From the IMG/VR virus record IMGVR_UViG_3300031760_000286, positions 1-35,076 of that record: 35,076 bases of DNA; one strand, 5' to 3'. The notes under the pieces are model-generated. The model was not told where the DNA came from. It searched no databases and saw only the letters and a program-made list of their open reading frames with translations. The stretch is from a virus. A program made the translations under genes and the position numbers. Below are positions 6,946 through 30,554 of this stretch, in pieces (the first letter of the stretch is position 1; each line of letters starts with the position of its first letter).

Positions 6946-7197
6946 TTAAAGGAAGACTACCTCGTCATTGCTGATACCCATGTCAAACATTTTGGCCTTG
7001 ATATAATTCAAAGCGTGCAGCACTCCTATCTGCCCCTTTTCCGCACTTCCAATGTGCCTCAATATTGCATTGTCTCTCATTCTAACAAGCTGCCAGCCGT
7101 AGCGTTCGTCATCGCAGGGCATCCATCCACAGACGTAAGGAGTCTCGATGTGCATCTCCAATGCGGTAGTGTAAAGGTCTTTTTGTTTCGTTTCCAT
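6946..7197 (-). CDS. First gene of the leftward early operon, hypothetical (83 aa; occupies the Cro position)
   Basis: I prefer the ATG at 7195-7197 (METKQKDLYTT..) to the TTG start at 7224 used by the ORF track. Confidence 0.45.
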   Translation of the reverse strand: METKQKDLYTTALEMHIETPYVCGWMPCDDERYGWQLVRMRDNAILRHIGSAEKGQIGVLHALNYIKAKMFDMGISNDEVVFL

Positions 7198-7211
7198 GAT
7201 TACAATTTTTT

Positions 7212-7250
7212 TTTGTTGTTTCAATTTTTTGTTTGTTGTTTCAATTTTTT
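7212..7250. repeat. Tandem direct repeat TTTGTTGTTTCAATTTTTT x2 (period 20) in the switch region; candidate operator
   Basis: 7212-7230 and 7232-7250 are identical over 19 nt. Confidence 0.6.
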
Positions 7251-7260
7251 TGTATTTTTG
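7228..7260 (+). promoter_or_regulatory. Candidate Bacteroidota-type promoter for the repressor/integrase operon
   Basis: TTTG (7228-7231), 21 nt, then TATTTTTG (7253-7260), which matches the -33 TTTG / -7 TAnnTTTG consensus. The region is AT-rich, so a chance match is possible. Confidence 0.35.
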
Positions 7261-7276
7261 CCTTCAAAAGCAGTTG

Positions 7277-7307
7277 CAAAAATACTATAAATTTTCTAAC
7301 TACCAAA
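7277..7307 (-). promoter_or_regulatory. Candidate Bacteroidota-type promoter for the leftward early (lytic) operon
   Basis: The minus strand reads TTTG (7307-7304), 19 nt, then TATTTTTG (7284-7277). Confidence 0.4.
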
Positions 7308-7314
7308 CTTTTTT

Positions 7315-7327
7315 TTCAGCGGCTGAA
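7315..7327. promoter_or_regulatory. 13-bp palindrome TTCAGC-G-GCTGAA; candidate operator
   Basis: Perfect inverted repeat forming the only GC-rich patch in the AT-rich 7198-7363 spacer. T-runs flank it. Confidence 0.35.
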
Positions 7328-7363
7328 CTTTTTAGAGAACAATAAACAATAAATTAAATAGTT

Positions 7364-7732
7364 ATGAATGAAAAATTTTTTCTTGACAGCGCGAAATTGG
7401 CAGAAATTTTGCGTTTTTACAGGCTAAAAATCGTAGAATTAAACCAAAAAATTGGCGCTAAAAACCGCGAACTATACCAAATATCGGCAGGCAACCAGCA
7501 GGAGTTCTCGCGTGACATGCTCAAGGCCATAGCAAAGCATTGCCCCGAGGTCTCGCCCTACTGGCTCATCACGGGTGAAGGCTCCATGCTGGCAGGCACG
7601 GCGGCACATCACAACGCCGTGGCCTCCGACCACTCCACGGCCACCGTGACGGAGAACGGCGGCGGCATCATAGAAAGCCAGCAGGCCACTATCGACCGCC
7701 TCTCGCGCATCATTGAAAAGCTGACACGATGA
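7364..7732 (+). CDS. CI-type phage repressor (Phage_CI_repr-like HTH)
   Basis: The N-terminal HTH ends in the family-typical SPYWLITGEGSM motif. The gene is divergent from the early operon and coupled to int by an ATGA overlap. Confidence 0.7.
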   Translation: MNEKFFLDSAKLAEILRFYRLKIVELNQKIGAKNRELYQISAGNQQEFSRDMLKAIAKHCPEVSPYWLITGEGSMLAGTAAHHNAVASDHSTATVTENGGGIIESQQATIDRLSRIIEKLTR

Positions 7733-8943
7733 CGACACGCTACTCCGTAACCTTCGCCCTGCTGCCGCGACCGCTACGCGACGGCACACACAGCGTCGCC
7801 CTCACCGTCACTTGGTGCCGCCAACGCTACCGCCACACCCTCGCCGTATCATGCCCTCCCGACAGCTGGGATGCAGCACGCCAGCTGGCACGCCCTCGCG
7901 GCACCTTCCGCGACGTCGCCGCCGTCAACAGCGCCGTCCTCGACGCACGCCAGCAGGTGGACGGCCTCTTCGCCCGCCTCGCCGCCGAAGGACGCACACC
8001 CACACCCCACGACCTCGACGGCCTCTTCACGGCTACTAAACGGCTACAAGACCGCATGACGGTGGCCGACGCCATCGCCGCCTTCATGGAAGAGCAACAG
8101 CGCGAACGCGGATGGCAACCTGCCACGGCCGCAAAATTCGGCATGCTGCACCGCGAACTCACCGCCAGCGGCACTACCTACGCCGACGAGATAGACGACG
8201 CAGCACGCGCGAGATTTATAGACCTCCACACCGCACACGGCATCCGCAACACGACCCTCGCTAAGAAGGTGGCCATCCTCAACTGGTTCTTGCGCTGGAG
8301 CAACGGCCGCGGCTACACCTCCTGCCCCGTCAAGCCCCTGCACCTCCGCACCGTGCCGCGAGCCGTCACATATCTTGAGTGGGATGAGCTCATGCACCTC
8401 TACACCTTCAACTACGGCGACCACGCCGCCCTCTCCCACGTCCGCGACATCTTCTGCCTCTGCGCCTTCACAGGGCTGCGCTACTCCGACGCGGCGGCTC
8501 TACGCTGGCACGACGTCACCGACGACAGCCTCCGCGTCGTCACGCAGAAGACCGCCGACCCTCTCGACATACCACTAAATAAATACGCGCGCGCGATAAT
8601 AGATAAGTACCGAGGCACGCAAGGCCGCGTCCTGCATGCGCCCACCAACCAAGCCGCCAACCGACTGCTCAAGGACGCCGCCCTTCTGGCACAGCTCGAC
8701 CGCACCGTGCGGCAGGTGTACTTCCGAGGCAACGAACGCCACGAAGAGGCGCTGCTGCTCTTCGAGGACTTCACCACCCACTACGCACGACGCACCTTCG
8801 TCGTTCATGCCCTCCGGCTCGGCATACCATCCGAAATTATCACGCGCTTTACAGGCCACAACAGCCTCCAAACCATGAAGCCCTACGTCGCCATCGTCGA
8901 CGAACTCAAGGCCACCGCCATGCATCGCTTCGATGAGGTGTAG
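7729..8943 (+). CDS. int: Tyrosine recombinase / phage integrase (Bacteroidota type)
   Basis: 404 aa. The C-terminal catalytic region reads HYARRTFVVHALRLGIPSEIITRFTGHNSLQTMKPYV (HxxR..GH..Y). A SAM-like core-binding region is present (IAAFMEEQQRERGWQPATAAKF). Confidence 0.85.
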   Translation: MTTRYSVTFALLPRPLRDGTHSVALTVTWCRQRYRHTLAVSCPPDSWDAARQLARPRGTFRDVAAVNSAVLDARQQVDGLFARLAAEGRTPTPHDLDGLFTATKRLQDRMTVADAIAAFMEEQQRERGWQPATAAKFGMLHRELTASGTTYADEIDDAARARFIDLHTAHGIRNTTLAKKVAILNWFLRWSNGRGYTSCPVKPLHLRTVPRAVTYLEWDELMHLYTFNYGDHAALSHVRDIFCLCAFTGLRYSDAAALRWHDVTDDSLRVVTQKTADPLDIPLNKYARAIIDKYRGTQGRVLHAPTNQAANRLLKDAALLAQLDRTVRQVYFRGNERHEEALLLFEDFTTHYARRTFVVHALRLGIPSEIITRFTGHNSLQTMKPYVAIVDELKATAMHRFDEV

Positions 8944-8972: not shown

Positions 8973-9011
8973 CAAACGGCAACCGATTGAATATCAGTCG
9001 CCGTTTGTTGT
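8969..9011 (+). terminator. 12-bp stem hairpin immediately after int (terminator or attP-associated inverted repeat)
   Basis: 8969-8980 ACAACAAACGGC pairs with 9000-9011 GCCGTTTGTTGT across a 19-nt loop. No clear U-tract. Confidence 0.4.
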
Positions 9012-9122
9012 CCCACCAGGACTTAAGTGTTTTGTTGCGTGGTGTTACGCAATGTTGCAGACATGCTGACAATCAGCAGTAAAATGTGCTGCCGTCGCCG
9101 ACTTTGTTTCAAAACGTTGCTA

Positions 9123-9521
9123 TTATCTATAAAAAAGTTGCCAAAATTTTGCCAACAAGACAGCCAGCAGCACCACCAGCGCCGCCACTCCCGACCACAT
9201 GAGAGCCTTCTGCCACCATGACAGCGGCTTGGCGACCTCCACGGTCTCGGTAACGGTAGTGACTACAGGCTTCTCGATATAGCGGTAGGCAGTGTCTATC
9301 TTGGTCACAATTTTTGACTTGGTCACTTCATTTGTGACAAAGATGGTGTCGCCCTTCACCTCGACGGTGTGCCAGCGGTCGATGTAGGTGCTGTCGTGGA
9401 GAAAAATTTTTTGCCTGATGGTGTCATGCACCTCGACGGGCACCTGCTCGATGACGCGGACGGTACGACAGGAGCAACACAAGACCGAGGCCAGCAAGAC
9501 GATAAAGAACACTCTCGTCAT
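9123..9521 (-). CDS. Unimolecular-spanin-like protein (N-terminal lipoprotein-type signal plus C-terminal TM helix)
   Basis: 132 aa. It starts MTRVFFIVLLASVLCCSC and ends in the TM segment WSGVAALVVLLAVLLAKFW. Its start overlaps the stop of the DUF5675 gene. Confidence 0.5.
   Translation of the reverse strand: MTRVFFIVLLASVLCCSCRTVRVIEQVPVEVHDTIRQKIFLHDSTYIDRWHTVEVKGDTIFVTNEVTKSKIVTKIDTAYRYIEKPVVTTVTETVEVAKPLSWWQKALMWSGVAALVVLLAVLLAKFWQLFYR
9138..9158 (+). repeat. 21-bp direct repeat copy 2 (TTGCCAAAATTTTGCCAACAA)
   Basis: See 8952-8972. This copy overlaps the 3' end of the 9123..9521 gene. Confidence 0.5.
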
Positions 9522-9988
9522 ACCACCTCCACCTCTACCTTCTCGCCGCGATGCTCGGCAGCCATGACACGCGCCACGATGGCGTCCATGTAGATGCGGT
9601 TGCCGTCAAGCCTCCCGACGATGTTGTTCTTTCCGAGCAGGATGCAGCCCTCGCTGTGGTCTGCCGTCATGCCGTTGTGCATGAGTATGCCGGTGAAGCC
9701 AGGCACGCGGAGCAGCCGCACCACGTAGGAGTTAAACTTTGGCCAATAGTACGAGCACGCGTCATAGCGCCCCGTCGGTATGGCCGTCTTGCTCGGCACC
9801 TTGTCGATAGAGGTGTTGTCATGCCTCAACCAATAGCCCTTATTGCCGCCTGTCGAGACGAAGGGCATCACCTGCGTGGCTCCTCGGTCGGTGTCCTCGA
9901 GGCTGTCGCAAAAGGCTTTGCCGTCGATGCTCACTTTGCCGACGGTGTAGGCGTTCTTTCGCGCCTTGCGTTCTACCTTAATCAGCAT
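9518..9988 (-). CDS. DUF5675-like protein (YkuD-like H..SxGC motif); candidate endolysin
   Basis: YTVGKVSIDGKAFCDSLEDTDRG..TAIPTGRY..VPGFTGILMHNGMTADHSEGCILLG matches my memory of the Bacteroidota DUF5675 family. It lies upstream of the spanin-like gene. Confidence 0.5.
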   Translation of the reverse strand: MLIKVERKARKNAYTVGKVSIDGKAFCDSLEDTDRGATQVMPFVSTGGNKGYWLRHDNTSIDKVPSKTAIPTGRYDACSYYWPKFNSYVVRLLRVPGFTGILMHNGMTADHSEGCILLGKNNIVGRLDGNRIYMDAIVARVMAAEHRGEKVEVEVV

Positions 9989-10241
9989 CGCCCAGCAGTC
10001 TTTCGTACTCCTTCCAGTCGTAGCTCTCGCTGTCGTGGTCGGCCATGATGTCGGCCTTCACCTCTTCGATGGTGGGCTTGCGGGTGTAGTCGACGCACTT
10101 GTACGTGTAGCCCATGCCGGCGCCTTCGCACTCTTCGGACGGCTCTTCGTGGCAGTCCCACACGATGCACCAGTGCTGCCTCTTTTCGTCGGTGCAGCGC
10201 ACCACGGGCAGCTCGTCAGTACCTGAATGAATAATGTACAT
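9978..10241 (-). CDS. Hypothetical acidic Cys-rich protein (87 aa) directly downstream of the RT
   Basis: ORF located 13 nt after the RT stop. Confidence 0.4.
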   Translation of the reverse strand: MYIIHSGTDELPVVRCTDEKRQHWCIVWDCHEEPSEECEGAGMGYTYKCVDYTRKPTIEEVKADIMADHDSESYDWKEYERLLGDAD

Positions 10242-10254
10242 AATTTGTTGATTT

Positions 10255-11559
10255 TTAAGTGAAACAATATTTTTTCTTTCCTTCTCCGAAGGTCTTTCTC
10301 CGTATCACCGTGCGAAAAGGTATCGCACCGGCCTCGCGCGTCTTGTCGAGTATCTGCTTCATCTCTTCGCTGTTGGTGAAAAACTTAAACTCTTTGGCAT
10401 TCTCGTCTTCTACAAGCACGAGATATCTGTCGCCGCCCTCCTTCGTGGTAACGCCCGTCTCGTAGTCCTTGACGATGATACGCGTATTCTGTAAGTCGTC
10501 GAGCCTCACCGTGGGGCACTCGTAACGCTTTTTGCCGTCGGCAGCGACATAAGATATGCCGAGCTCACTAAAATCTTTCATATTGTAGCCTGTTAGTGTC
10601 TTGAATAGATGTTTTGCGTGGGCGTGCTTCGCCCATCCATAGAACGAGCCCAAGAGCTCTCGTTTCCTCCGGCGGCTCTTGACATCACGCCAGTGGCGTA
10701 TGAAGCGCTGCTTTATGTGCTTGCGCAGCGCTATACGGCCGTCACCGTGGATGACATAGCCGAGGAAGTCCAGCGGCCTGCTGTCGATGCAGAATATCTG
10801 CTCGTTGCCTTTTATGTCAAGCCCTGCCTCCGCAGCATGGCTGTGGATAGCCTCCTTTGCAGCCGTGAGGTCTTGGGGCGAGTGACCGCCGACAATGATG
10901 TCGTCGCAGTATCGCCAGTAGTACTTACAGCCGAGGCCGTCCTTTATGGCATGGTCTACATATTCGCTCAAATACAGGTTGCCGAAAGTCTGACTTGCTC
11001 GCAGGCCGATGCTGATGCCTTGCGGCAGCATGCGCACGCAGTCCTCAAGTATGGCCACCACCTGCGGCTCTCGGAACTTGCGCCGGATGATGGCCGTCAG
11101 CTTTTCTTGGTCGATACTCTGATAGTACTTGCGGATGTCGCACTTGTAGAACCACATCAACTCGCGGTCTGTCTGCATGGCCTTCTGCATGCGCTTGAGC
11201 AGGTAGAGGCCACCGCGACCTTTGATGCTCGACGCCGTGTCCGTGATGAAGGACGGCAGCAGCCGCTTCTCTATTTCGTTCATGAGGCTGTTGAGGGCTA
11301 TACGGTCGCGCAGCGGTATCGCCTGTATCGTGCGCTCTTTGCCACGTTCTATGATATTAAACTGATGATAGTGGCTGATGCGGAACGTGCCCTCGCGGAG
11401 CTCCTGCTGGAGCTGTGCTATCACCTCCTCGCGGTGGGCGAGCAGCTTCTGTCCCGTCGGGCATGTCTTTCTCATGGTGCCGCGCAGCACATAGTCGAAG
11501 CTCTCGTACAAGTTGCTGTACGAGGATGCCTGCTCTATTATGCCGCCGTAGCTTTTCAT
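10255..11559 (-). CDS. DGR reverse transcriptase with a C-terminal extension of about 110 aa
   Basis: 434 aa. It carries the DGR-diagnostic motif-4 IGxxxSQ (SIGLRASQTFGNLYL) and a catalytic YCDD (YWRYCDDIIV). The TR lies 175 nt upstream. Confidence 0.9.
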   Translation of the reverse strand: MKSYGGIIEQASSYSNLYESFDYVLRGTMRKTCPTGQKLLAHREEVIAQLQQELREGTFRISHYHQFNIIERGKERTIQAIPLRDRIALNSLMNEIEKRLLPSFITDTASSIKGRGGLYLLKRMQKAMQTDRELMWFYKCDIRKYYQSIDQEKLTAIIRRKFREPQVVAILEDCVRMLPQGISIGLRASQTFGNLYLSEYVDHAIKDGLGCKYYWRYCDDIIVGGHSPQDLTAAKEAIHSHAAEAGLDIKGNEQIFCIDSRPLDFLGYVIHGDGRIALRKHIKQRFIRHWRDVKSRRRKRELLGSFYGWAKHAHAKHLFKTLTGYNMKDFSELGISYVAADGKKRYECPTVRLDDLQNTRIIVKDYETGVTTKEGGDRYLVLVEDENAKEFKFFTNSEEMKQILDKTREAGAIPFRTVIRRKTFGEGKKKYCFT

Positions 11560-11734
11560 CAGCCTTCATTCTGTGGGGCTTGCCGTTCTCGCTCGCGCTA
11601 CTGACCGCGCCACCCCGTTGTCCGTTATTTTTCACCTCCGCTTGTGCGGTGTGGTGAGGCTCCGCTCCCTCGGCGTGGCTCGACAATCGCGTTGCCTATG
11701 CCTTGCCGATATATCTCTGGACATTCTCATGATT

Positions 11735-11850
11735 GCGAGGCGCGACCCGTTATTCGCATTCGTATTCGAGGAGTCGTTATTCGCATTCGCGTACGCCACT
11801 CCGCCTTGCGAGTTCGCATTGTTGTACGAGCGCAGGACAACACGCCCACT
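11735..11850 (-). repeat. DGR template repeat (TR) core, 116 nt; homology may continue with an indel to about 11868
   Basis: It aligns without gaps to 11941-12056. Its translation is Asn-rich (YNNANSQGGVAYANANNDSSNTNANNGS) from AAY codons. It contains an internal 15-nt duplication (11748-11762 = 11775-11789). Confidence 0.9.
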
Positions 11851-11873
11851 TCGGGAGCTTCCGCCCATATCTT

Positions 11874-13070
11874 TTATCCTATCGCTGTCGCCGCGAGGAA
11901 CGCGGCGACGCTCTCCGCTTTAACGCAGTGGCCGCGGAAGGCGAGGCGCGACCCGTAACTCGCATACGTCGTCGAGGAGCCGCTACCCGCATCCGCGCAC
12001 GCCACCCCGCCTTGCGAGTACGCACTGGCGCACGAGCGCAGGACAACACGCCCACTGGAACCCGTCATATAGATGCCGTCGCAGAAGCCGTGATGGTCGT
12101 CGCCTCCTGTCTGCGTCGGGTAGGGTATGAGGTCGAGGTTGGCACCGACGACCATGCGCTTGGGGTAGACCCATGTGTTGGGCGTCACCTGCCCCTGCAC
12201 CGTGCGTGTCAAGCCGCTGTTACGGTCGGCAATAGTCCAGTCGTAACCGTTGACGTCAACGTTGTCGACCCACTCGTACTTATTTCCCCACCAATTATCG
12301 AGGCCGAAGAAGTTGATGCTCGACTGATTGCCGTTGACGCTGTTGGTGTCTGTCATGCCGAGGGCGTTGGTGAGGCCAGTGTTCTTGGCATTCGTGGCCG
12401 TACCACTTCCGCAGATGGCCTGCGCGTTGGTGTTGCCGTAGATGGCATAGAAGAGGAAGGCCATGATGTTCTGATGTTCCCAGCGCACGAGGCTGAAGTT
12501 CGCCGAGCGGTTGCGTGCCTTAATCTTGAAGTTGGCCTGCGACACGCTGGCGAGGCTCGCCACGCCGCTGATGCTGCGAAGGAAGCCTGCGCCGCTGTTG
12601 GCGGTCTCCAGCGTCGAGCCGTCGAAAGCCGTCGTCGAGGCAGCCTCATAGGCGCCGATGATGTCGTGCTCCGACCACTCAAGCCAGCTCTCGTCGACCT
12701 TGTAGTCGGCGAAGCCTATCTTCCAAACACCTGCCGACACCTCCACGGCCTGCGTGTAGAGCGTAGGCCGCTGCATGAAGACGTCGCCCTGCGTGCCGTC
12801 GAGCGTGGCCGCCGTGCCGTCGTAGAACTTCGTGCTGTCGTGGTCGTCGAGCTGGCACAGCAGCATCACGCCGTCGGCGACATACTTGCCGAGATAGCGG
12901 TGCGAGTTGGCGCGGATGCGGCGTATCAGCTTGCCGTTGACATCGCCGCCAATCATGGTGGCAGGGTCGCTCACCGTCATGTCAAGCATGATGAAGTTGA
13001 CATGGCTCTTGTCGTGGATGCCGGAGGCTCCTTTGCGGCGGCCTCCGCCCATAGGTATTATCAAGCTCAT
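11874..13070 (-). CDS. DGR target protein: tail-fibre / receptor-binding-like protein with a C-type-lectin (FGE-like) C-terminal fold carrying the VR
   Basis: 398 aa. NWWGNKYEWV and the C-terminal ..GRVVLRSCASAYSQGGVACADAGSGSSTTYASYGSRLAFRG are typical of DGR CLec-fold targets. It lies last in the tail gene block. Confidence 0.8.
   Translation of the reverse strand: MSLIIPMGGGRRKGASGIHDKSHVNFIMLDMTVSDPATMIGGDVNGKLIRRIRANSHRYLGKYVADGVMLLCQLDDHDSTKFYDGTAATLDGTQGDVFMQRPTLYTQAVEVSAGVWKIGFADYKVDESWLEWSEHDIIGAYEAASTTAFDGSTLETANSGAGFLRSISGVASLASVSQANFKIKARNRSANFSLVRWEHQNIMAFLFYAIYGNTNAQAICGSGTATNAKNTGLTNALGMTDTNSVNGNQSSINFFGLDNWWGNKYEWVDNVDVNGYDWTIADRNSGLTRTVQGQVTPNTWVYPKRMVVGANLDLIPYPTQTGGDDHHGFCDGIYMTGSSGRVVLRSCASAYSQGGVACADAGSGSSTTYASYGSRLAFRGHCVKAESVAAFLAATAIG
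11887..11909 (-). other. Perfect 9-bp GC-rich hairpin/cruciform 31 nt downstream of the VR
   Basis: GTCGCCGCG (11887-11895), aggaa, CGCGGCGAC (11901-11909). It lies inside the last 12 codons of the target gene. Confidence 0.7.
11941..12056 (-). repeat. DGR variable repeat (VR), 116 nt
   Basis: It shows 17 mismatches to the TR. Sixteen fall where the TR has A on the coding (minus) strand, so 16 of 28 TR adenines are substituted. One mismatch is at a non-adenine (TR 11764). Confidence 0.9.
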
Positions 13071-13074
13071 AATA

Positions 13075-15792
13075 TTATGATGTTAGGTTGTTGATATTGT
13101 TGATTTGTCGAAGTTTGCACCTGCATGTGGTGTTGTGCTCTCCCCAGCTGCGTATCTCGGTGACGAGATAGAGCAGGTGGTCGATGATGACGAGCGGCAC
13201 GCGCCGCACCTTGTCAAAGATGTCACGCGGCAGGTCGATATTCACCTCTATCGTCTTGTTCTGCACGTCGTATAGCTCCTCGACGTAGCCCTGCCACGCC
13301 CTCTCATAGAGATACTGCGTCGCCACGTCGGGGGTGCCGGTATAGGCCTCCCTCACGGGGGCGAAGAGCAGCGACTGCCCCGAAGCCGCCACCGTGGCAA
13401 AGACAGGGATGACGGCCAGCGGCATATCGCTGGCGCTGTCGCCATGCCAGCAGAATGTGTTGCGCAGCACTTCGTCTATGCTGTCGTCGGAGACATACAC
13501 GCTGCTGCGCCAGCCGTCGAGCAGAGGCTCTGCCGCCGTTCTGTTGGCGCGGCGGTAGTAGAAATTGCCGCTGATGTTCGCGGCCTTGTCGTCCTTGACG
13601 TTGGCGATGGCCGGCAGGCTCTCGACCTGCGTCGTGGTGTCCGACGCCATGATGGCTCTCACGGGTGCCGCTGTGAGGCTCGCCACCGCCGACGCCTTGC
13701 TGCCGTAGTTGGTGATGAGCTTCTTCTCTCCCTTGCCGACGGCGTTCTGCGTGACGATACGCTTGCTGCCGAAGGGTATGCCGTGCCGTTCTTCGTAGCC
13801 TTCAGTGAAGGTCGTGTCAAGGCCTTCGAGGTTGAAGAGGACGCTGCGGTGCTCCCACGACAGAGGCGTCATGGTGACGGCCTGCGCCACCTGCGGCGTG
13901 ATGTCGGCAGGGTTCGCGGCCATGAAGTCCGCAAAGGCATCCTTCGAGCGCTTGACGGTGACGGTCTCGGCCACATCGTCGACCTCCCACACGAGATGGT
14001 GCAGCTTGGCATACTGCAGCAGGACGGCGAAGGGTGCTATGTCGCCGAACAGAGCCTCAAGGCTCACGGCACGGCCGCTGCGCATGTTCTCCGCACGGCG
14101 CACGGTGACGTTGGATATGCCGACCGACAGCGTCGGCGCTGTGCTGACATTATACCAATAATTGGAAGACACCACATTGGAACCTGCCAGCGCAAAGGGC
14201 GTCACGTCTTCAGTCGCTTCAGGCGTATAGAACGAGGCCGTCGCTTCCAGCTGTATGTCGGTGGCCGTCGTCGGTATCAGCGTCAGCTCGTCATGGAACG
14301 CGGCCAGCGTCATGTCGCCCTGCACACCTACGGCGATGGGCGAGTAACCACACTCGCGTATCTCATAGGCGCGGCGCATGGCCTTGCCAACGGCCTGCGA
14401 GACATAGTTGCCGAAGACGGTGTTACGGTCAAGGAACCAGTCTTTGCCGCTATTCTCGGTGGTGTTGAAGATGATATAGTGTTTCTCGTTGTAGAAGCCG
14501 ACGCCTGCGCCCGTGGCCTTGACTCGTATATGCAGGGGCGAGACGTTATTCATGCCTATGTGCCAGTCGGATATGTCATGTTGCGGCAGCATGGAGATGA
14601 CGCTTTCGAGGTCGTAGCCGAAGGTCACCCTCTCCCCTGCCTCCACATGTACGGTGTCAGTGGTGGCTGTTGCCACAACGTCGCCTATGCCGGACACGAT
14701 GATAGGATGCTGCGACACTTCGGCACTCTCTATTGGCATGACGGTGGCCGTCTGCCCTCCCGACAGGGCGCTCTCGGCGATGGTCTTCTCGTCTATCTTC
14801 TGCTGCGGCAGCATGTAGACCATGCCCTTGAGCTCGTCGTTGGTAGCGTTGAACCAACGCTGGTCGAGTATCATGTCGTAGCCCGTGACGGTGCGGCACT
14901 CCCTCGCTATGAGCTGCCACAAGGCCGACACGTAGATATATGGCTGCTGGTAGTAGCTGCGGTATTCGCCCAGCTGCTGCTCGTATACCGTGCCCTCTAC
15001 CTTGTAACTGTCGGCGGCGCTGCCGTCGAGCCATGTCCGCTGCGACAGCACAGGCACGATGCCAGCCTGTGCGGCTCTCTCGCCGTCGATGACGGTCTTG
15101 TTGAGCCACTTGTCGCCGCTGAAGTCGGGGTACGCTCCCTGCAGGGTAGGCGCGAAGCCTATGAGCGAGACGATGTGCGCCGCCGTCTCGTAGGCAGCCG
15201 CAAGGCCATAGAGCGCCGCGAGGTCGTCATGCTGATATATCTCCGTGAGGTCGAAGAGTGGATTGTCTACCATCCATGACGTGCGCACGAGGGCGGCGTT
15301 GAGGGCGTTCTTCGCGTTCATGTCGAAGCCGTTGCGCCACGCATAGCGCACCACGTCGAAGAGTTTGACATAGCTGTCGTCTTCGGTCTTCTTCGCCGCG
15401 CTCCAGCCTGCGTTGAGAAGGCGCGAGAATATGGCGCTCTGCGAGCCTGTCAGCGACAGATAGTATGCGTCTTTGTCTACCTTTGTGAGAACGGCGTCGC
15501 CAGTACTGACGACCATCCCCGAAGACATGGCAAGGTACTGCATCTTCTCGGCAGGATTGAAGCCGCTGGCCGTAACCACGCTGTCAAGGCGGTAAATATT
15601 GCTGAAGAGCTTGTCATTGTCGGCACAGCGCGGCAACTTGACCGACACGCTGCGCTCGCTGACGTAGTTTGTCGGGTTGTCGAGGTTGTCGAAGGTGAAG
15701 GTGAAGCGCACGTCCTCTTTGTCGTCGAGGACGACCTCTCGCCACACCTGCTTCGTCATGCCATAGGGTATCTTCAAATACAGCCTGCTCAT
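13075..15792 (-). CDS. Large virion/tail structural protein (905 aa)
   Basis: Long ORF in the tail block, coupled upstream by an ATGA overlap. I recognise no family. Confidence 0.55.
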   Translation of the reverse strand: MSRLYLKIPYGMTKQVWREVVLDDKEDVRFTFTFDNLDNPTNYVSERSVSVKLPRCADNDKLFSNIYRLDSVVTASGFNPAEKMQYLAMSSGMVVSTGDAVLTKVDKDAYYLSLTGSQSAIFSRLLNAGWSAAKKTEDDSYVKLFDVVRYAWRNGFDMNAKNALNAALVRTSWMVDNPLFDLTEIYQHDDLAALYGLAAAYETAAHIVSLIGFAPTLQGAYPDFSGDKWLNKTVIDGERAAQAGIVPVLSQRTWLDGSAADSYKVEGTVYEQQLGEYRSYYQQPYIYVSALWQLIARECRTVTGYDMILDQRWFNATNDELKGMVYMLPQQKIDEKTIAESALSGGQTATVMPIESAEVSQHPIIVSGIGDVVATATTDTVHVEAGERVTFGYDLESVISMLPQHDISDWHIGMNNVSPLHIRVKATGAGVGFYNEKHYIIFNTTENSGKDWFLDRNTVFGNYVSQAVGKAMRRAYEIRECGYSPIAVGVQGDMTLAAFHDELTLIPTTATDIQLEATASFYTPEATEDVTPFALAGSNVVSSNYWYNVSTAPTLSVGISNVTVRRAENMRSGRAVSLEALFGDIAPFAVLLQYAKLHHLVWEVDDVAETVTVKRSKDAFADFMAANPADITPQVAQAVTMTPLSWEHRSVLFNLEGLDTTFTEGYEERHGIPFGSKRIVTQNAVGKGEKKLITNYGSKASAVASLTAAPVRAIMASDTTTQVESLPAIANVKDDKAANISGNFYYRRANRTAAEPLLDGWRSSVYVSDDSIDEVLRNTFCWHGDSASDMPLAVIPVFATVAASGQSLLFAPVREAYTGTPDVATQYLYERAWQGYVEELYDVQNKTIEVNIDLPRDIFDKVRRVPLVIIDHLLYLVTEIRSWGEHNTTCRCKLRQINNINNLTS

Positions 15793-16964
15793 AACTCTTT
15801 ATGCACTATCTCTTTGAGGGTGATATTTATAGGCTCGAAACGCCAGCGCACGTTGCCAGCCGTCGGCAGCGACCTGTTCTCCACGCTGCACCACACGCCC
15901 TTGTCGACCTCCACGTTATAGAGGTACACTTCTCGGGCGTAGGCTATGGTCGTTATAATATTATATTGTTCGCGCGTGAGAAAGCCGCTGAAGAGGCTGT
16001 ACTGCTGCTGCACGTCCATAGCCGTGACGCGGTCGCTGTTGCGGTAGTCGTGAAGCGTGGCCACCGTTGGCGATGCCTGCTCGGTGGTGTTGCCGTCGAA
16101 GCCCCAGCAGAACCAGCCGCCACTCGGGAGTCTCCACGCCACATAGTAGGGCGAGGGGCAGCGGTCGACATGCGCCACTGGTATAACACCGCCGCCGTGG
16201 TAGAGGTTGATATCGATGTCGGACACGACGGTGAGCGTGCCTTCGCTGTCGCCGCCGTCAGCCTCATCGGTGGCAGTATCGTCGCTGTCGCCACCGTCCA
16301 CGGAGGTGTCGAAGGTGCTGTTGGATACGCCACCGTCAACCTCGCCGTTGAAGAGCGACGCAAAGAGGTCGCGCAAGGTGAAGGCCATGTCATAGCAGCC
16401 TGCACCTGCCAACGACAGCGTAACTCTATGTATGAGGTCGCTCCCCAGCTGTGGCTGCTCGTTGACGAACCACTGCAAAGCGAGTTCGAGCCACATGTTG
16501 GTTGTCGCCACAGGCGGCAAGTGAGGCACGACGGCATTGCCGAGCAGCGTGAGGTTGACGGTCTCGCCACCCGTAAAGACCAGCTCGCCTTGCTGCCACC
16601 CCAGCAGCCAGCCGTCCCACACGATGGCCGTCTGCTCGGAGGTGTAGCCACCGCCGGAGATGGAGACCAGCAGCAGGGCGAGGATGCCGTCGGTAGGCTC
16701 TCTCTGCTCTTCGATGTCCGCGAGGGCGGTCGGCACATAGCCTTGCCGGTCGTCGTTCCACGTCAGCAGCTTCTTGCGCATATACGCGCGGCAGATGTCG
16801 TCAACGGCGATGTCGGCCTTGCCGTCGGCGTCGGCGATGCAGCGCCCCTCGTAGATATCGTTATAGTTTGCGCCATACGCCGCAAGCTGCACCTTGAAGG
16901 TGTGCTGCGAGAACGGCACCATGCCGCCAAAGGTTATTATGATAGGCTTGTTGATGGTCTTCAT
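15789..16964 (-). CDS. Virion/tail structural protein (391 aa)
   Basis: ORF in the tail block, preceded by a terminator and the conserved intergenic motif. Confidence 0.5.
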   Translation of the reverse strand: MKTINKPIIITFGGMVPFSQHTFKVQLAAYGANYNDIYEGRCIADADGKADIAVDDICRAYMRKKLLTWNDDRQGYVPTALADIEEQREPTDGILALLLVSISGGGYTSEQTAIVWDGWLLGWQQGELVFTGGETVNLTLLGNAVVPHLPPVATTNMWLELALQWFVNEQPQLGSDLIHRVTLSLAGAGCYDMAFTLRDLFASLFNGEVDGGVSNSTFDTSVDGGDSDDTATDEADGGDSEGTLTVVSDIDINLYHGGGVIPVAHVDRCPSPYYVAWRLPSGGWFCWGFDGNTTEQASPTVATLHDYRNSDRVTAMDVQQQYSLFSGFLTREQYNIITTIAYAREVYLYNVEVDKGVWCSVENRSLPTAGNVRWRFEPINITLKEIVHKEL

Positions 16965-22413: not shown

Positions 22414-23148
22414 TTAAAAGTTTTCTATTTGGAAGTCCTGCCACACGGCGCGGTTGGCATACATGTCGTTGGCGATTTTATGCACGAGCAGGGTGATGTT
22501 TCTGACGTCAAGGCTGGCGAAGACATTGTCGCCTCCGAGTTCGGGGGGCGTCATAGCTTCGCATCGCACCAAACCGAGGCTGGTGACAGCAAAGGCACCG
22601 TCTTCAATGCGGTGTACCCATGACGGTATGTGCACCTCCTTGAGTTCTATGTTGGCGAAGGCAGCTTGGGGAATGGTTGTGGGGTCTTTGAAGACGACGG
22701 CCACGGTGTGCGTGCCGGCGGTGAAGTGTATTTGCTGTCCTGTGTCGTAGGCCTTGCCGTTGTCTACCTTTACCATCGCCACATCGCCGTCGGCGTTGTC
22801 GTTGATGATGTCGTAGTTGCCTTCGCTGCCGAAGCTGTAGGTTGCCAGCACGGCCATGCCGACGGCGAGAGAGCTGATGCCGAAGGCGGCATCTACGTCC
22901 ACGAGTTGGGAGTTGGGTATGGCGTCGAGCTTCGTCTTGTCGGCGGCGCTCATGGCACCTGCCACGCTCTGCGTGGCGTTGGGGATGGTGAAGTACGGCA
23001 GGTCGTTGAAGGCCGCAAGGCCTGTGCCTATCTTCAGCCGCTGCGGCGTGGTGTCGGTGACGATGGCAAACTCACCGTAGGCCAGCACGGGGTTGTTCGT
23101 CGCCCACCGTGCGGCACTGTCTCTACGTATCTTGATGGTCGTTGACAT
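22414..23148 (-). CDS. Fibre-like protein: Mtd_N-type N-terminal domain fused to BspA-type leucine-rich repeats
   Basis: IKIRRDSAARWATNNPVLAYGEFAIVTDT..LKIGTGLAAFNDLPY is the tail-fibre / Mtd N-terminal motif. The C-terminal IPQAAFANIELKEVHIPSWVHRIEDGAFA..TPPELGGDNVF..AVWQDF is LRR_5-like. Confidence 0.6.
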   Translation of the reverse strand: MSTTIKIRRDSAARWATNNPVLAYGEFAIVTDTTPQRLKIGTGLAAFNDLPYFTIPNATQSVAGAMSAADKTKLDAIPNSQLVDVDAAFGISSLAVGMAVLATYSFGSEGNYDIINDNADGDVAMVKVDNGKAYDTGQQIHFTAGTHTVAVVFKDPTTIPQAAFANIELKEVHIPSWVHRIEDGAFAVTSLGLVRCEAMTPPELGGDNVFASLDVRNITLLVHKIANDMYANRAVWQDFQIENF

Positions 23149-29627: not shown

Positions 29628-30554
29628 CTATCGAAGTGCCGACAAGGCTGCTCTGCGCGATGGCCTTGTAAAACTCGCAACTCCCTTTAACTTGCATTGT
29701 TTCAGTGACTTGCACCCCCCCCTATCAAATAAATAGTGGTTGAGGTTAGCGGTGTTAGTACGCCAGCCGAGGCCGTCCACGCCACAACAGCACAAACTGT
29801 CGCCCATGCTGCGCAACCTATTCTCCCCTGCGTAGAACTTCAAACCGAGTTTGTGGCACTTGCTTTTGAGTTGCAGAAACAGGGGTTGCAGAATGTCCGT
29901 AGGGTAGACGAAGTCGCCGCCGAGCCGTATTGTTTTCGGTCTCTTTGTTTTGTACTTCATGGCCTCAAAGACGCACCCATATACACCCACTTCTGCAAAC
30001 CTTTCTAGCGCTTGCGTGATTTGCTTGTGGTAGTAGGGCATGTATGGCTGCACACGGACGATAACCCTCTTATACTTGGCTATTTCCTCAGCGGCTTGCA
30101 TCCTCTCGTCAAACGTACTCGCGCCTTTTTCAAACTCGTCATACTCCTTGCAAGCGGCGCTGAACTGCACAACGCAGTTGCATTGCTTTATTAACTCAAG
30201 GTACTCGCCCTCGGAAATGAGCTTGTTTTTGGTGCTGACAACAAAGGGGTACTGCGTTTCAGCAAACAGTTTAAGGCATTCGAGACTGCGCCGAAACTTC
30301 TTCTCCACAGGTTGAAACGGGTCGCTTTCCCCTCCCCAATGTAACGGTATATCGAAGTCGCACCACTTCGTCAGCTTGTTTCTTTTGCCGTCGATGAAGT
30401 CACGCAAGGCAACCACGCTCTCGGCTGGCTTGATGTTTTGGATGTCGTACTTTAGCTTTACGAAACAGTAGTCGCAAGCATGCGAACAGCCTCGGTAGGT
30501 GTCGAAGCGTATAGGCAGGTCGCAAATAAATACTTGTGAGCCAGTTTTAGGCAT
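29628..30554 (-). CDS. Radical SAM enzyme, SplB / COG1533-like (DNA-repair-photolyase-like family)
   Basis: FDTYRGCSHACDYCF contains the CxxxCxxC cluster motif in the context typical of SplB-like proteins. The gene is encoded on a ~42% GC island. The C-terminus after the G8 run is doubtful. Confidence 0.65.
   Translation of the reverse strand: MPKTGSQVFICDLPIRFDTYRGCSHACDYCFVKLKYDIQNIKPAESVVALRDFIDGKRNKLTKWCDFDIPLHWGGESDPFQPVEKKFRRSLECLKLFAETQYPFVVSTKNKLISEGEYLELIKQCNCVVQFSAACKEYDEFEKGASTFDERMQAAEEIAKYKRVIVRVQPYMPYYHKQITQALERFAEVGVYGCVFEAMKYKTKRPKTIRLGGDFVYPTDILQPLFLQLKSKCHKLGLKFYAGENRLRSMGDSLCCCGVDGLGWRTNTANLNHYLFDRGGCKSLKQCKLKGVASFTRPSRRAALSALR

Follow-up and report, generated by a model that had tools for sequence, protein, structure and literature searches.

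A predicted OB-fold module attached to the reverse transcriptase of an Avd-less phage diversity-generating retroelement

Introduction

How diversity-generating retroelements (DGRs) work without the accessory protein Avd has been a standing question since the survey of Wu et al. (2018; PMC5758913). The question is raised again by a DGR in the virus record IMGVR_UViG_3300031760_000286, of which 35,076 nt were analyzed (the 35-kb window, i.e., the whole stretch of DNA; the phage is possibly not complete within it). On the minus strand this DGR consists of a target gene with the variable repeat (VR) and a downstream hairpin, the template repeat (TR), a spacer RNA of the RT-3 family, the reverse transcriptase (RT), and an open reading frame (ORF) of 87 aa, in that order. 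An earlier reading made from the sequence alone (the sequence-only reading) had seen no avd gene and had proposed that a C-terminal extension of the RT may take the place of Avd in cis, or else that the 87-aa protein may be a new accessory factor. The positions and features which it listed (the 398-, 434-, and 87-aa ORFs, the repeats, and the spacer length) are all present.

In the survey of Wu et al. (2018), 29% of DGRs were without an accessory gene of any kind. Their lineage 3 "notably lacks avd", and lineage 3A was found only in Bacteroides and relatives. A protein of 160-169 aa and isoelectric point (pI) 4.7, named CH1, was specific to lineage 3a, and approximately 20% of DGR RTs carried C-terminal extensions of up to 150 aa with no recognized motif (PMC5758913). 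The DGRs of crAss-like phages (LMMB etc.) belong to lineage 3, have the order target-TR-RT, and contain no avd (PMC7290462).

Results

The C-terminal extension of the RT

The RT is 434 aa long (10255..11559, minus strand), matches Pfam RVT_1 at residues 73-270, and carries SIGLRASQ and YCDD motifs. Its best solved relative was the Bordetella bRT (8ub7_A, 328 aa), in which chain residues 5-317 aligned to query residues 4-320 (E 1.3e-21). Because the complete 328-aa bRT aligns end to end with residues 4-320, residues from about 325 to 434 are extra.

A homologue search with the whole RT returned 2947 matches. The best 120 of these were 47-96% identical, nearly all of them 430-437 aa long with 100% coverage, and those with names came from Bacteroidales, Prevotella, and Massilibacteroides. 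Among 106 aligned homologues the mean column identity was 0.65 in residues 325-434 and 0.65 in the RT domain. Conservation of the extension thus equals that of the RT core, as for a genuine domain kept by selection. A scan using one genome per species confirmed 164 RT loci, of which 80, almost all labelled Bacteroidales, were fetched. All 80 contained the extension, fused to the RT in 79 and interrupted by a stop codon in one. The methionine at the fusion point (M327) was conserved in at least 90% of fused RTs and could permit a free module protein to be made from the fused gene.

Residues 318-434 were modelled with AlphaFold2 (AF2) from 104 sequences (mean predicted local distance difference test score, pLDDT, 76). 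The first 30 or so residues formed a low-confidence linker. Model residues 30-117 (pLDDT 76-88) followed the order strand 1-strand 2-strand 3-helix-strand 4-strand 5 (strands 42-55, 58-68, 73-78, 98-107, and 111-116; helix 81-92; model numbering), which is the order of an oligonucleotide/oligosaccharide-binding (OB) fold, here a predicted barrel of five strands in which a helix separates strand 3 from strand 4. The top Foldseek matches in the PDB were PrgE (an OB protein resembling single-stranded DNA-binding proteins, SSBs; 5.7e-3), Teb1 OB-A, Trf, Pf3 SSB, hSSB1, and POT1. Against the viral predicted structures of BFVD there were 16 matches at E ≤ 1e-3, headed by viral RTs that carry this tail as well (TM 0.77). 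Next came phage proteins, of which the annotated ones were single-stranded DNA (ssDNA)-binding proteins; DUF669 proteins fell just below the cutoff. A sequence-profile search of the PDB with the profile of the C-terminal domain (CTD) gave nothing credible. RT residues 327-434 matched positions 2-104 of the 105 positions of phrog_19665 (E 3.7e-20), a PHROGs family of stand-alone phage proteins of about 105 aa with no assigned function.

The extension is thus predicted to be an OB-fold domain resembling the ssDNA-binding proteins of phages and plasmids. The sequence-only reading had described it as looking like a small beta-rich domain that binds nucleic acid. The predicted order of strands and helix, the OB and SSB structural neighbors, and the conservation of 0.65 all agree with that description, in which the binding is a prediction.

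Free-standing and fused forms of the module

A search of 1.84 billion representative sequences with the CTD profile returned 260 matches. The domain was always C-terminal in long proteins, and many matches of 101-109 aa started precisely at the Met of MKxFSELG, the motif that opens the CTD of the window. One free-standing module protein was on record in 60 blocks of the sequence collection, and the free-standing protein P0213 matched phrog_19665 at 2.2e-23. In Mu-like phages an RT of 327-328 aa was followed by a module ORF of 103-105 aa in the +1 frame, with an overlap of 17 nt.

A scan of viral contigs with an alignment of six OB sequences gave 174 confirmed loci; 80 were fetched and 78 could be analyzed. 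The module was a separate ORF with the RT directly upstream in 74 of the 78 loci, and was fused to the RT in three, giving an RT of 428 aa. The overlap was exactly 17 nt in most split-type loci (e.g., locus L091, 6001-6017) and 4, 23, 29, 41, or 44 nt in a few. Because the three fused loci are close relatives with a clean in-frame fusion (e.g., L125, 5032-6318), the split and fused states interconvert easily. Loci L091 and L089 each contained two VRs and an adenine-rich TR, which identifies split-type loci as DGRs.

Programmed frameshifting at the overlap of the RT and OB genes was considered and rejected: the junctions were A-rich but many had no slippery run, e.g., ATGAAGAAGTTC. As the junctions do not form a conserved slippery site, the RT and OB genes are probably separate and translationally coupled. 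In Phocaeicola phage PV4-TP1 (LoVEphage; L004, 3878-5421) the RT region was annotated as three ORFs (271, 58, and 194 aa) with the OB module in the last, which might reflect decay of the RT, a split arrangement, or recoding.

The window RT would accordingly be built as a fusion of an RT of ordinary DGR length (residues 1-326, corresponding to the entire bRT) and a module of 108 residues, of which about the last 88 form the predicted OB fold. Being a separate gene of 103-105 aa in a sister Avd-less group and fused in the window, the module behaves as a DGR accessory protein, and by these sequence comparisons the extension is best described as a DGR accessory module, free or fused. In the part of the literature that was searched, no paper was found linking DGR RTs to an OB fold or describing a free-standing form, which is no proof of absence.

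Search for Avd

Six-frame scans bore out the earlier observation that no Avd was visible. The Avd family was absent among the listed Pfam and NCBIfam matches of 148 stop-to-stop segments of at least 100 aa from the window. When 146 window segments of 90-215 aa were compared with Pfam, only the spiked BPP-1 Avd control matched PF22296 bAvd at E ≤ 0.05 (control E 7.3e-36). Scanned singly, the 87-aa ORF, the DUF5675 protein, the 132-aa ORF, the target, and the 905-aa ORF had no Avd match at E ≤ 0.1. Thus, no avd gene (PF22296/PF05635) of the kind that defines the canonical Architecture B was found in the cassette. No Avd family recurred among 134 ORFs from 20 related loci, and in split-type loci none was found in individually scanned neighbors or in representatives of 114 recurrent-neighbor clusters from 78 loci. 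A tblastn search with BPP-1 Avd gave matches only in Bordetella phages.

An Avd could have been missed if it were too divergent, shorter than 90 aa, outside the 35-kb window, or encoded in trans by the host. The scans covered segments of at least 90 aa and listed the best 25 families, so that a PF05635 match weaker than about E 0.02 was not visible, and the phage may extend beyond the window. Against this stand the strength of the control, the lack of any recurring Avd in the related and split-type loci, and the profile search of Wu et al. (2018; PMC5758913), in which avd was not found elsewhere in the genomes of Avd-less DGRs. For the 87-aa ORF itself the prediction, at low confidence, was of two helices together with three strands, which is no helical bundle. 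A hidden Avd is considered very improbable.

Role of the module

In the mechanism proposed here, the OB module would bind single-stranded nucleic acid during mutagenic retrohoming. Its ligand could be the TR-spacer RNA (RT-3) at priming, or the adenine-mutagenized cDNA, which the module might protect or hand over. In this way it would cover at least part of the job done by the basic Avd pentamer in BPP-1. An accessory OB module with a nucleic-acid-handling role in the DGR is the reading that we favor, as somewhat probable. That the module is a functional substitute for Avd is a more doubtful proposal. Equally tentative is the broader suggestion that the OB module (phrog_19665), free or fused, is the missing accessory factor of a large Avd-independent class of DGRs, where it would bind RT-3 or RT-17 RNA or nascent cDNA, be needed for priming or homing, and represent a second, unrelated solution to the job of Avd.

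Several observations weigh against these proposals. Foldseek found no PDB match to the extension at E ≤ 1e-3, and the TM-scores were modest (0.3-0.55). No Pfam family was found with 59 CTD sequences, which returned scattered noise only (HECW1_helix, DUF7778, and others; E ≥ 0.01). The module is only mildly basic (pI 8.5; median of fused CTDs 7.8), compared with 9.55 for BPP-1 Avd, and an OB monomer is structurally unlike the pentameric helical barrel of Avd. Among Avd-containing DGRs the one case checked was BPP-1, which had no OB homologue. Finally, crAss-like lineage-3 DGRs have neither Avd nor an OB homologue. A lack of Avd therefore does not require the OB module, which may be an add-on rather than a replacement for Avd.

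The crAss-like DGRs also fit an alternative in which a lineage-3 RT and a structured spacer RNA suffice without any Avd-like partner. The OB module would then be downstream or auxiliary: it might coat cDNA, recruit host recombination or replication factors to the VR, or confer processivity in the manner of telomerase OB proteins. A rough neighbor-joining (NJ) tree placed the split-OB RTs with the crAss RTs, while the fused-OB RTs, including that of the window, formed their own clade with the hankyphage; Teb1, a telomerase processivity factor, was among the top structural matches. However, the module is kept in both of these separate RT clades, in 74 of 78 viral loci it adjoins the RT gene at its 3' end, and its conservation matches that of the catalytic core; all this speaks for a core role in the DGRs that possess it. 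Moreover, crAss phages are about 100 kb in size and could encode an unrecognized factor elsewhere. This alternative is judged rather unlikely, and a nucleic-acid-handling role within the DGR is preferred.

The 87-aa ORF and the CH1-like family

The 87-aa ORF downstream of the RT is acidic (pI 4.47), and its direct homologues were close ones only, 82-92 aa long. Clustering of ORFs from the 80 genome loci yielded one family that started at the RT stop codon in 78-79 of the 80 (158-167 aa, median pI 4.86). Sixty-three of the 80 loci were hankyphage-like, and the family was also found in 16 of the 17 other contexts. DUF4376 of Pfam was matched by 51 of 56 family members and Avd by none. The 87-aa ORF matched the 161-position family profile at positions 5-63 (hmmsearch, 28.9 bits) and by hhalign (probability 94%, E 1.2e-7), and matched phrog_19239 at positions 6-61 (1.5e-4). 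These matches cover only the N-terminal domain (W-x-V-R-W-D) of the approximately 160-aa CH1-like/DUF4376 family, and the DUF4376 half was not encoded anywhere in the window.

By these profile matches the 87-aa ORF appears to be a shortened, N-domain homologue of the CH1-like/DUF4376/phrog_19239 family. Compared by description only, the family appears to correspond to CH1 of Wu et al. in length, charge, position, and host. The proposal that the 87-aa protein is a new accessory factor therefore stands in part: its family is consistently linked to the RT, but as a member of that family it would not be new. A PDB sequence-profile search with the CH1 profile gave nothing credible, and the low-confidence AF2 model of the 87-aa ORF had a pLDDT of 59. 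Because of its acidic charge, the protein is unlikely to bind nucleic acid.

The same domain was seen in crAss-like phage cr50_1 (L087, 1572-1916), where a 114-aa ORF directly after an RT with neither OB module nor Avd carries W-x-V-R-W-D (E 2e-5 to 3e-6). The N-domain of the CH1-like family thus recurs beside RTs across sub-clades of lineage 3.

In the hankyphage, the ORF noted as 'Avd' in GenBank PV107405 (L002, PV107405.1 9302-9787; L001, 7302-7787) was found to be an acidic DUF4376 protein (phrog_19239, 1.4e-69; Pfam DUF4376) with no match to an Avd family. The label follows a figure legend of PMC12135933 and appears to rest on position only; Benler et al. went no further than to note "a small ORF" by the RT whose pI and mass resemble those of Avd. 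What recent hankyphage records call 'Avd' is thus no Avd homologue but a DUF4376 protein linked to DGRs.

An acidic CH1-like ORF always adjoins the fused-type RT, which suits a further alternative in which the RT extension is a protein-protein or structural module that binds no nucleic acid and instead docks the CH1-like protein, oligomerizes, or tethers the RT to a phage or host component. OB folds mediate protein binding as well, and the weakly basic charge of the module would agree with such a role. Yet split-type loci keep the OB gene with no CH1 homologue, and the named structural neighbors of the module are overwhelmingly binders of ssDNA or RNA. We consider this alternative improbable and retain nucleic-acid handling as the likelier role of the module.

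The spacer RNA

The gap between TR and RT (175 nt, 11560-11734) contains no ORF, as the sequence-only reading had said, but it is not empty. By cmscan it matched the full Rfam model RF03068 (RT-3, positions 1-148) at 47.5 bits (gathering threshold 40.5; E 1.5e-9). In the hankyphage (146.6 bits) and BS-TP4, as in seven other related loci, RT-3 occupied the same position between TR and RT. The BPP-1 spacer matched RF03022 (Phage_DGR) and not RT-3, and RT-17 was found between TR and RT in split-type locus L091 (4952-5033). The pattern suggests a separate spacer RNA family for each DGR lineage.

At the gathering threshold, no RT-3 match came from the fused-OB loci L007, L008, L010, L041, and L043 or from LoVEphage. 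In RT identity L007, L008, and L010 are the loci nearest to the window, which does have a match above that threshold. The spacers of the five numbered loci may hold a divergent RT-3 or a different motif. The comparison of spacer motifs across lineages also covered L006, 2750-2882.

Weinberg et al. (PMC5737381) described motifs RT-1 to RT-19 near RT genes; only RT-10 was tied to a DGR, and it was guessed that others would follow. The present results place two of these orphan motifs in the TR-RT spacer of particular DGR lineages: RT-3, and, in the single split-type locus that was checked, RT-17.

The cassette and its activity

Features of the cassette are listed in Table 1. The target stop codon lies 65-180 nt downstream of the VR and 23 nt from the TR. 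The target matched phrog_14959 (4.8e-55), a profile of 2494 positions of which it covers the C-terminal part, and also phrog_5302 'tail protein' (1.1e-30). The two 116-nt repeats differ at 17 positions, and 16 of the 17 differences fall on TR adenines of the coding strand. Because they fall on adenines of the intergenic copy, the repeats are a TR/VR pair. The sole exception is a T>G difference on the coding strand (TR 11764, VR 11970) that adjoins an adenine site; VR position 11970 was also variable across metagenome samples (C>A, plus strand). The hairpin starts about 31 nt 3' of the VR, within the target ORF, and is a candidate target-recognition hairpin by analogy with that of BPP-1 (PMC3240598).

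Table 1. Features of the DGR cassette in the window
Feature	Position	Strand	Basis
DGR target gene, 398 aa, tail-fibre-like, VR at 3' end	11874..13070	minus	ORF and PHROGs
VR, 116 nt	11941..12056	minus	Direct repeat of TR, 85% identical, inside 3' end of target ORF
GC-rich hairpin, perfect 9-bp stem, 5-nt loop	11887..11909 (11887-11895 / 11901-11909)	minus	Inverted repeat, 100% complementary
TR, 116 nt, intergenic, 28 adenines on coding strand	11735..11850	minus	Direct repeat of VR
RT-3 RNA motif (RF03068) in TR-RT spacer	11575..11711	minus	cmscan, 47.5 bits
DGR RT core, residues 1-326	10582..11559	minus	Pfam RVT_1; alignment to Bordetella bRT 8ub7_A
RT C-terminal extension, residues 327-434	10258..10581 (stop codon 10255-10257)	minus	Linker and predicted OB fold
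Predicted OB-fold part of extension, residues ~347-434	10258-10521	minus	AF2, Foldseek, phrog_19665
87-aa acidic ORF, short CH1-like N-domain homologue	9978..10241	minus	Profile matches, close homologues

The window sequence was found in a bovine gut metagenome, with 100% of sampled words present in one run. Contigs from three other metagenome runs were compared with the window at 11560-12360. In the VR, 16 of the 19 listed sites that varied between samples were TR-adenine sites, compared with 28 adenines among the 116 positions (hypergeometric P ~1e-9). The TR was nearly invariant, with one listed change. Since the variation between samples falls on TR adenines, the element has been active. 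The contigs were assembled and came from related phages, so this records diversification in nature and not a rate. Activity of the hankyphage DGR has been reported in culture (PMC12135933). The adenine pattern of TR and VR, the DGR-type RT by the TR, and the adenine-directed diversification of the VR together indicate that the locus is a functional phage DGR.

Relation to known DGRs

The window RT was 45% identical to the hankyphage RT, about 33% identical to crAss RTs, and 27% identical to bRT. Placed by these identities and the rough NJ tree, and not by the tree of Wu et al., the window DGR is of the Avd-less lineage 3/3A type found in phages of Bacteroidales. It shares with lineage 3/3A (Architecture A/E) the absence of avd, Bacteroides-type hosts, the order target-TR-RT, an acidic ORF adjacent to the RT, and an RT extension. 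Its CH1-like copy, however, is half the length of CH1, and Wu et al. gave the extension no fold and no free-standing copies.

The hankyphage (Bacteroides phage p00, BK010646) DGR is the closest described relative. Its RT is likewise 434 aa and aligns over the full length including the extension; target-VR, TR, RT-3 RNA, RT, and acidic ORF follow in the same order, and it has no Pfam Avd. Since Avd-less lineage 3, RT extensions, and CH1 were all reported by Wu et al. (2018; PMC5758913), the architecture is already known, and the view that it is new is not supported.

The two phages differ in other respects. The window encodes a tyrosine integrase, a T4-type terminase, and a PBSX/HK97-type portal, whereas the hankyphage has Mu-like transposition genes. 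The target is 398 aa in the window and about 2245 aa in the hankyphage; a 64-aa ORF between target and TR is present only in the hankyphage; and the RT is followed by an ORF of 87 aa (N-domain only) in the window and by one of 161 aa with DUF4376 in the hankyphage. The GC content of the window, about 59%, is a further difference. The window was not collinear with the Mu-like hankyphage p00 genome, and a megablast of positions 9000-16000 against phages gave no match, including to the hankyphage. The Mor, ThyA, and methyltransferase genes that lie downstream of the RT in 63 of the 80 genome loci were absent from the window.

Split-type DGRs of Mu-like phages (L089, L091, L095-L174) resemble the window in having a phrog_19665 module directly 3' of the RT and no Avd. 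They differ in having the module as a separate gene, RT cores 32-35% identical to that of the window, two small targets, RT-17, and no CH1-like ORF. BPP-1 shares the plan in which target/VR, TR, structured spacer RNA, and RT form a cassette for mutagenic retrohoming, and its RT core is homologous over the full length. It differs in that Avd is encoded between target and TR, the 328-aa RT ends without an extension, the spacer is RF03022, and an OB homologue is absent. Outside DGRs, OB-type ssDNA-binding proteins (PrgE of pCF10, phage SSBs, T7 gp2.5-like DUF669, and Teb1 OB-A) have the barrel plan predicted for the module, five strands with a helix between strands 3 and 4. They have no detectable sequence similarity to it and their structural scores were modest; the module, in contrast, is attached to or translationally linked with an RT.

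Other genes of the window

A 244-aa ORF (22414-23148, minus strand) combines Mtd_N (major tropism determinant N-terminal, 6.3e-8) with BspA-type leucine-rich repeats. Its distance from the DGR is about 10 kb, and the portal gene is close by; the target of the DGR gave no Mtd_N match. A DUF5675 protein (9518-9988, minus strand; 5e-20, phrog_1501) overlaps the stop of the 87-aa ORF; next comes an ORF of 132 aa, hydrophobic at its C-terminus (9123-9521, minus strand). These two may belong to a lysis or late module that closes the minus-strand operon immediately ahead of the integrase. A helix-turn-helix protein and a Bacteroidetes-type tyrosine integrase (Phage_integrase and Arm-DNA-bind_5) are encoded at 7364-8943 (plus strand), opposite in strand to the DGR. 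This is probably a lysogeny module, making the phage integrase-based, unlike the Mu-like hankyphage. GC content drops to 0.51 around 7000-8000. Cargo of the kind typical for replication/recombination and anti-restriction is encoded as well: a radical-SAM protein (29628-30554, minus strand; NCBIfam PA0069/Rv2578c-type) and, elsewhere in the window, a cytosine-5 DNA methylase, AAA_24, PD-(D/E)XK and VRR-NUC nucleases, and a DUF3127 protein.

Discussion

The window brings no new architecture to the DGRs. It helps to define a candidate for the question of how DGRs work without Avd: a conserved module with a predicted OB fold, welded to the RT or translationally linked with it. The natural split and fused versions are ready-made constructs for testing, and a compact Avd-free system of RT and OB module could serve DGR-based tools for targeted mutagenesis. 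Avd-less elements of this kind dominate in the phages of gut Bacteroidales, including the very widespread hankyphage.

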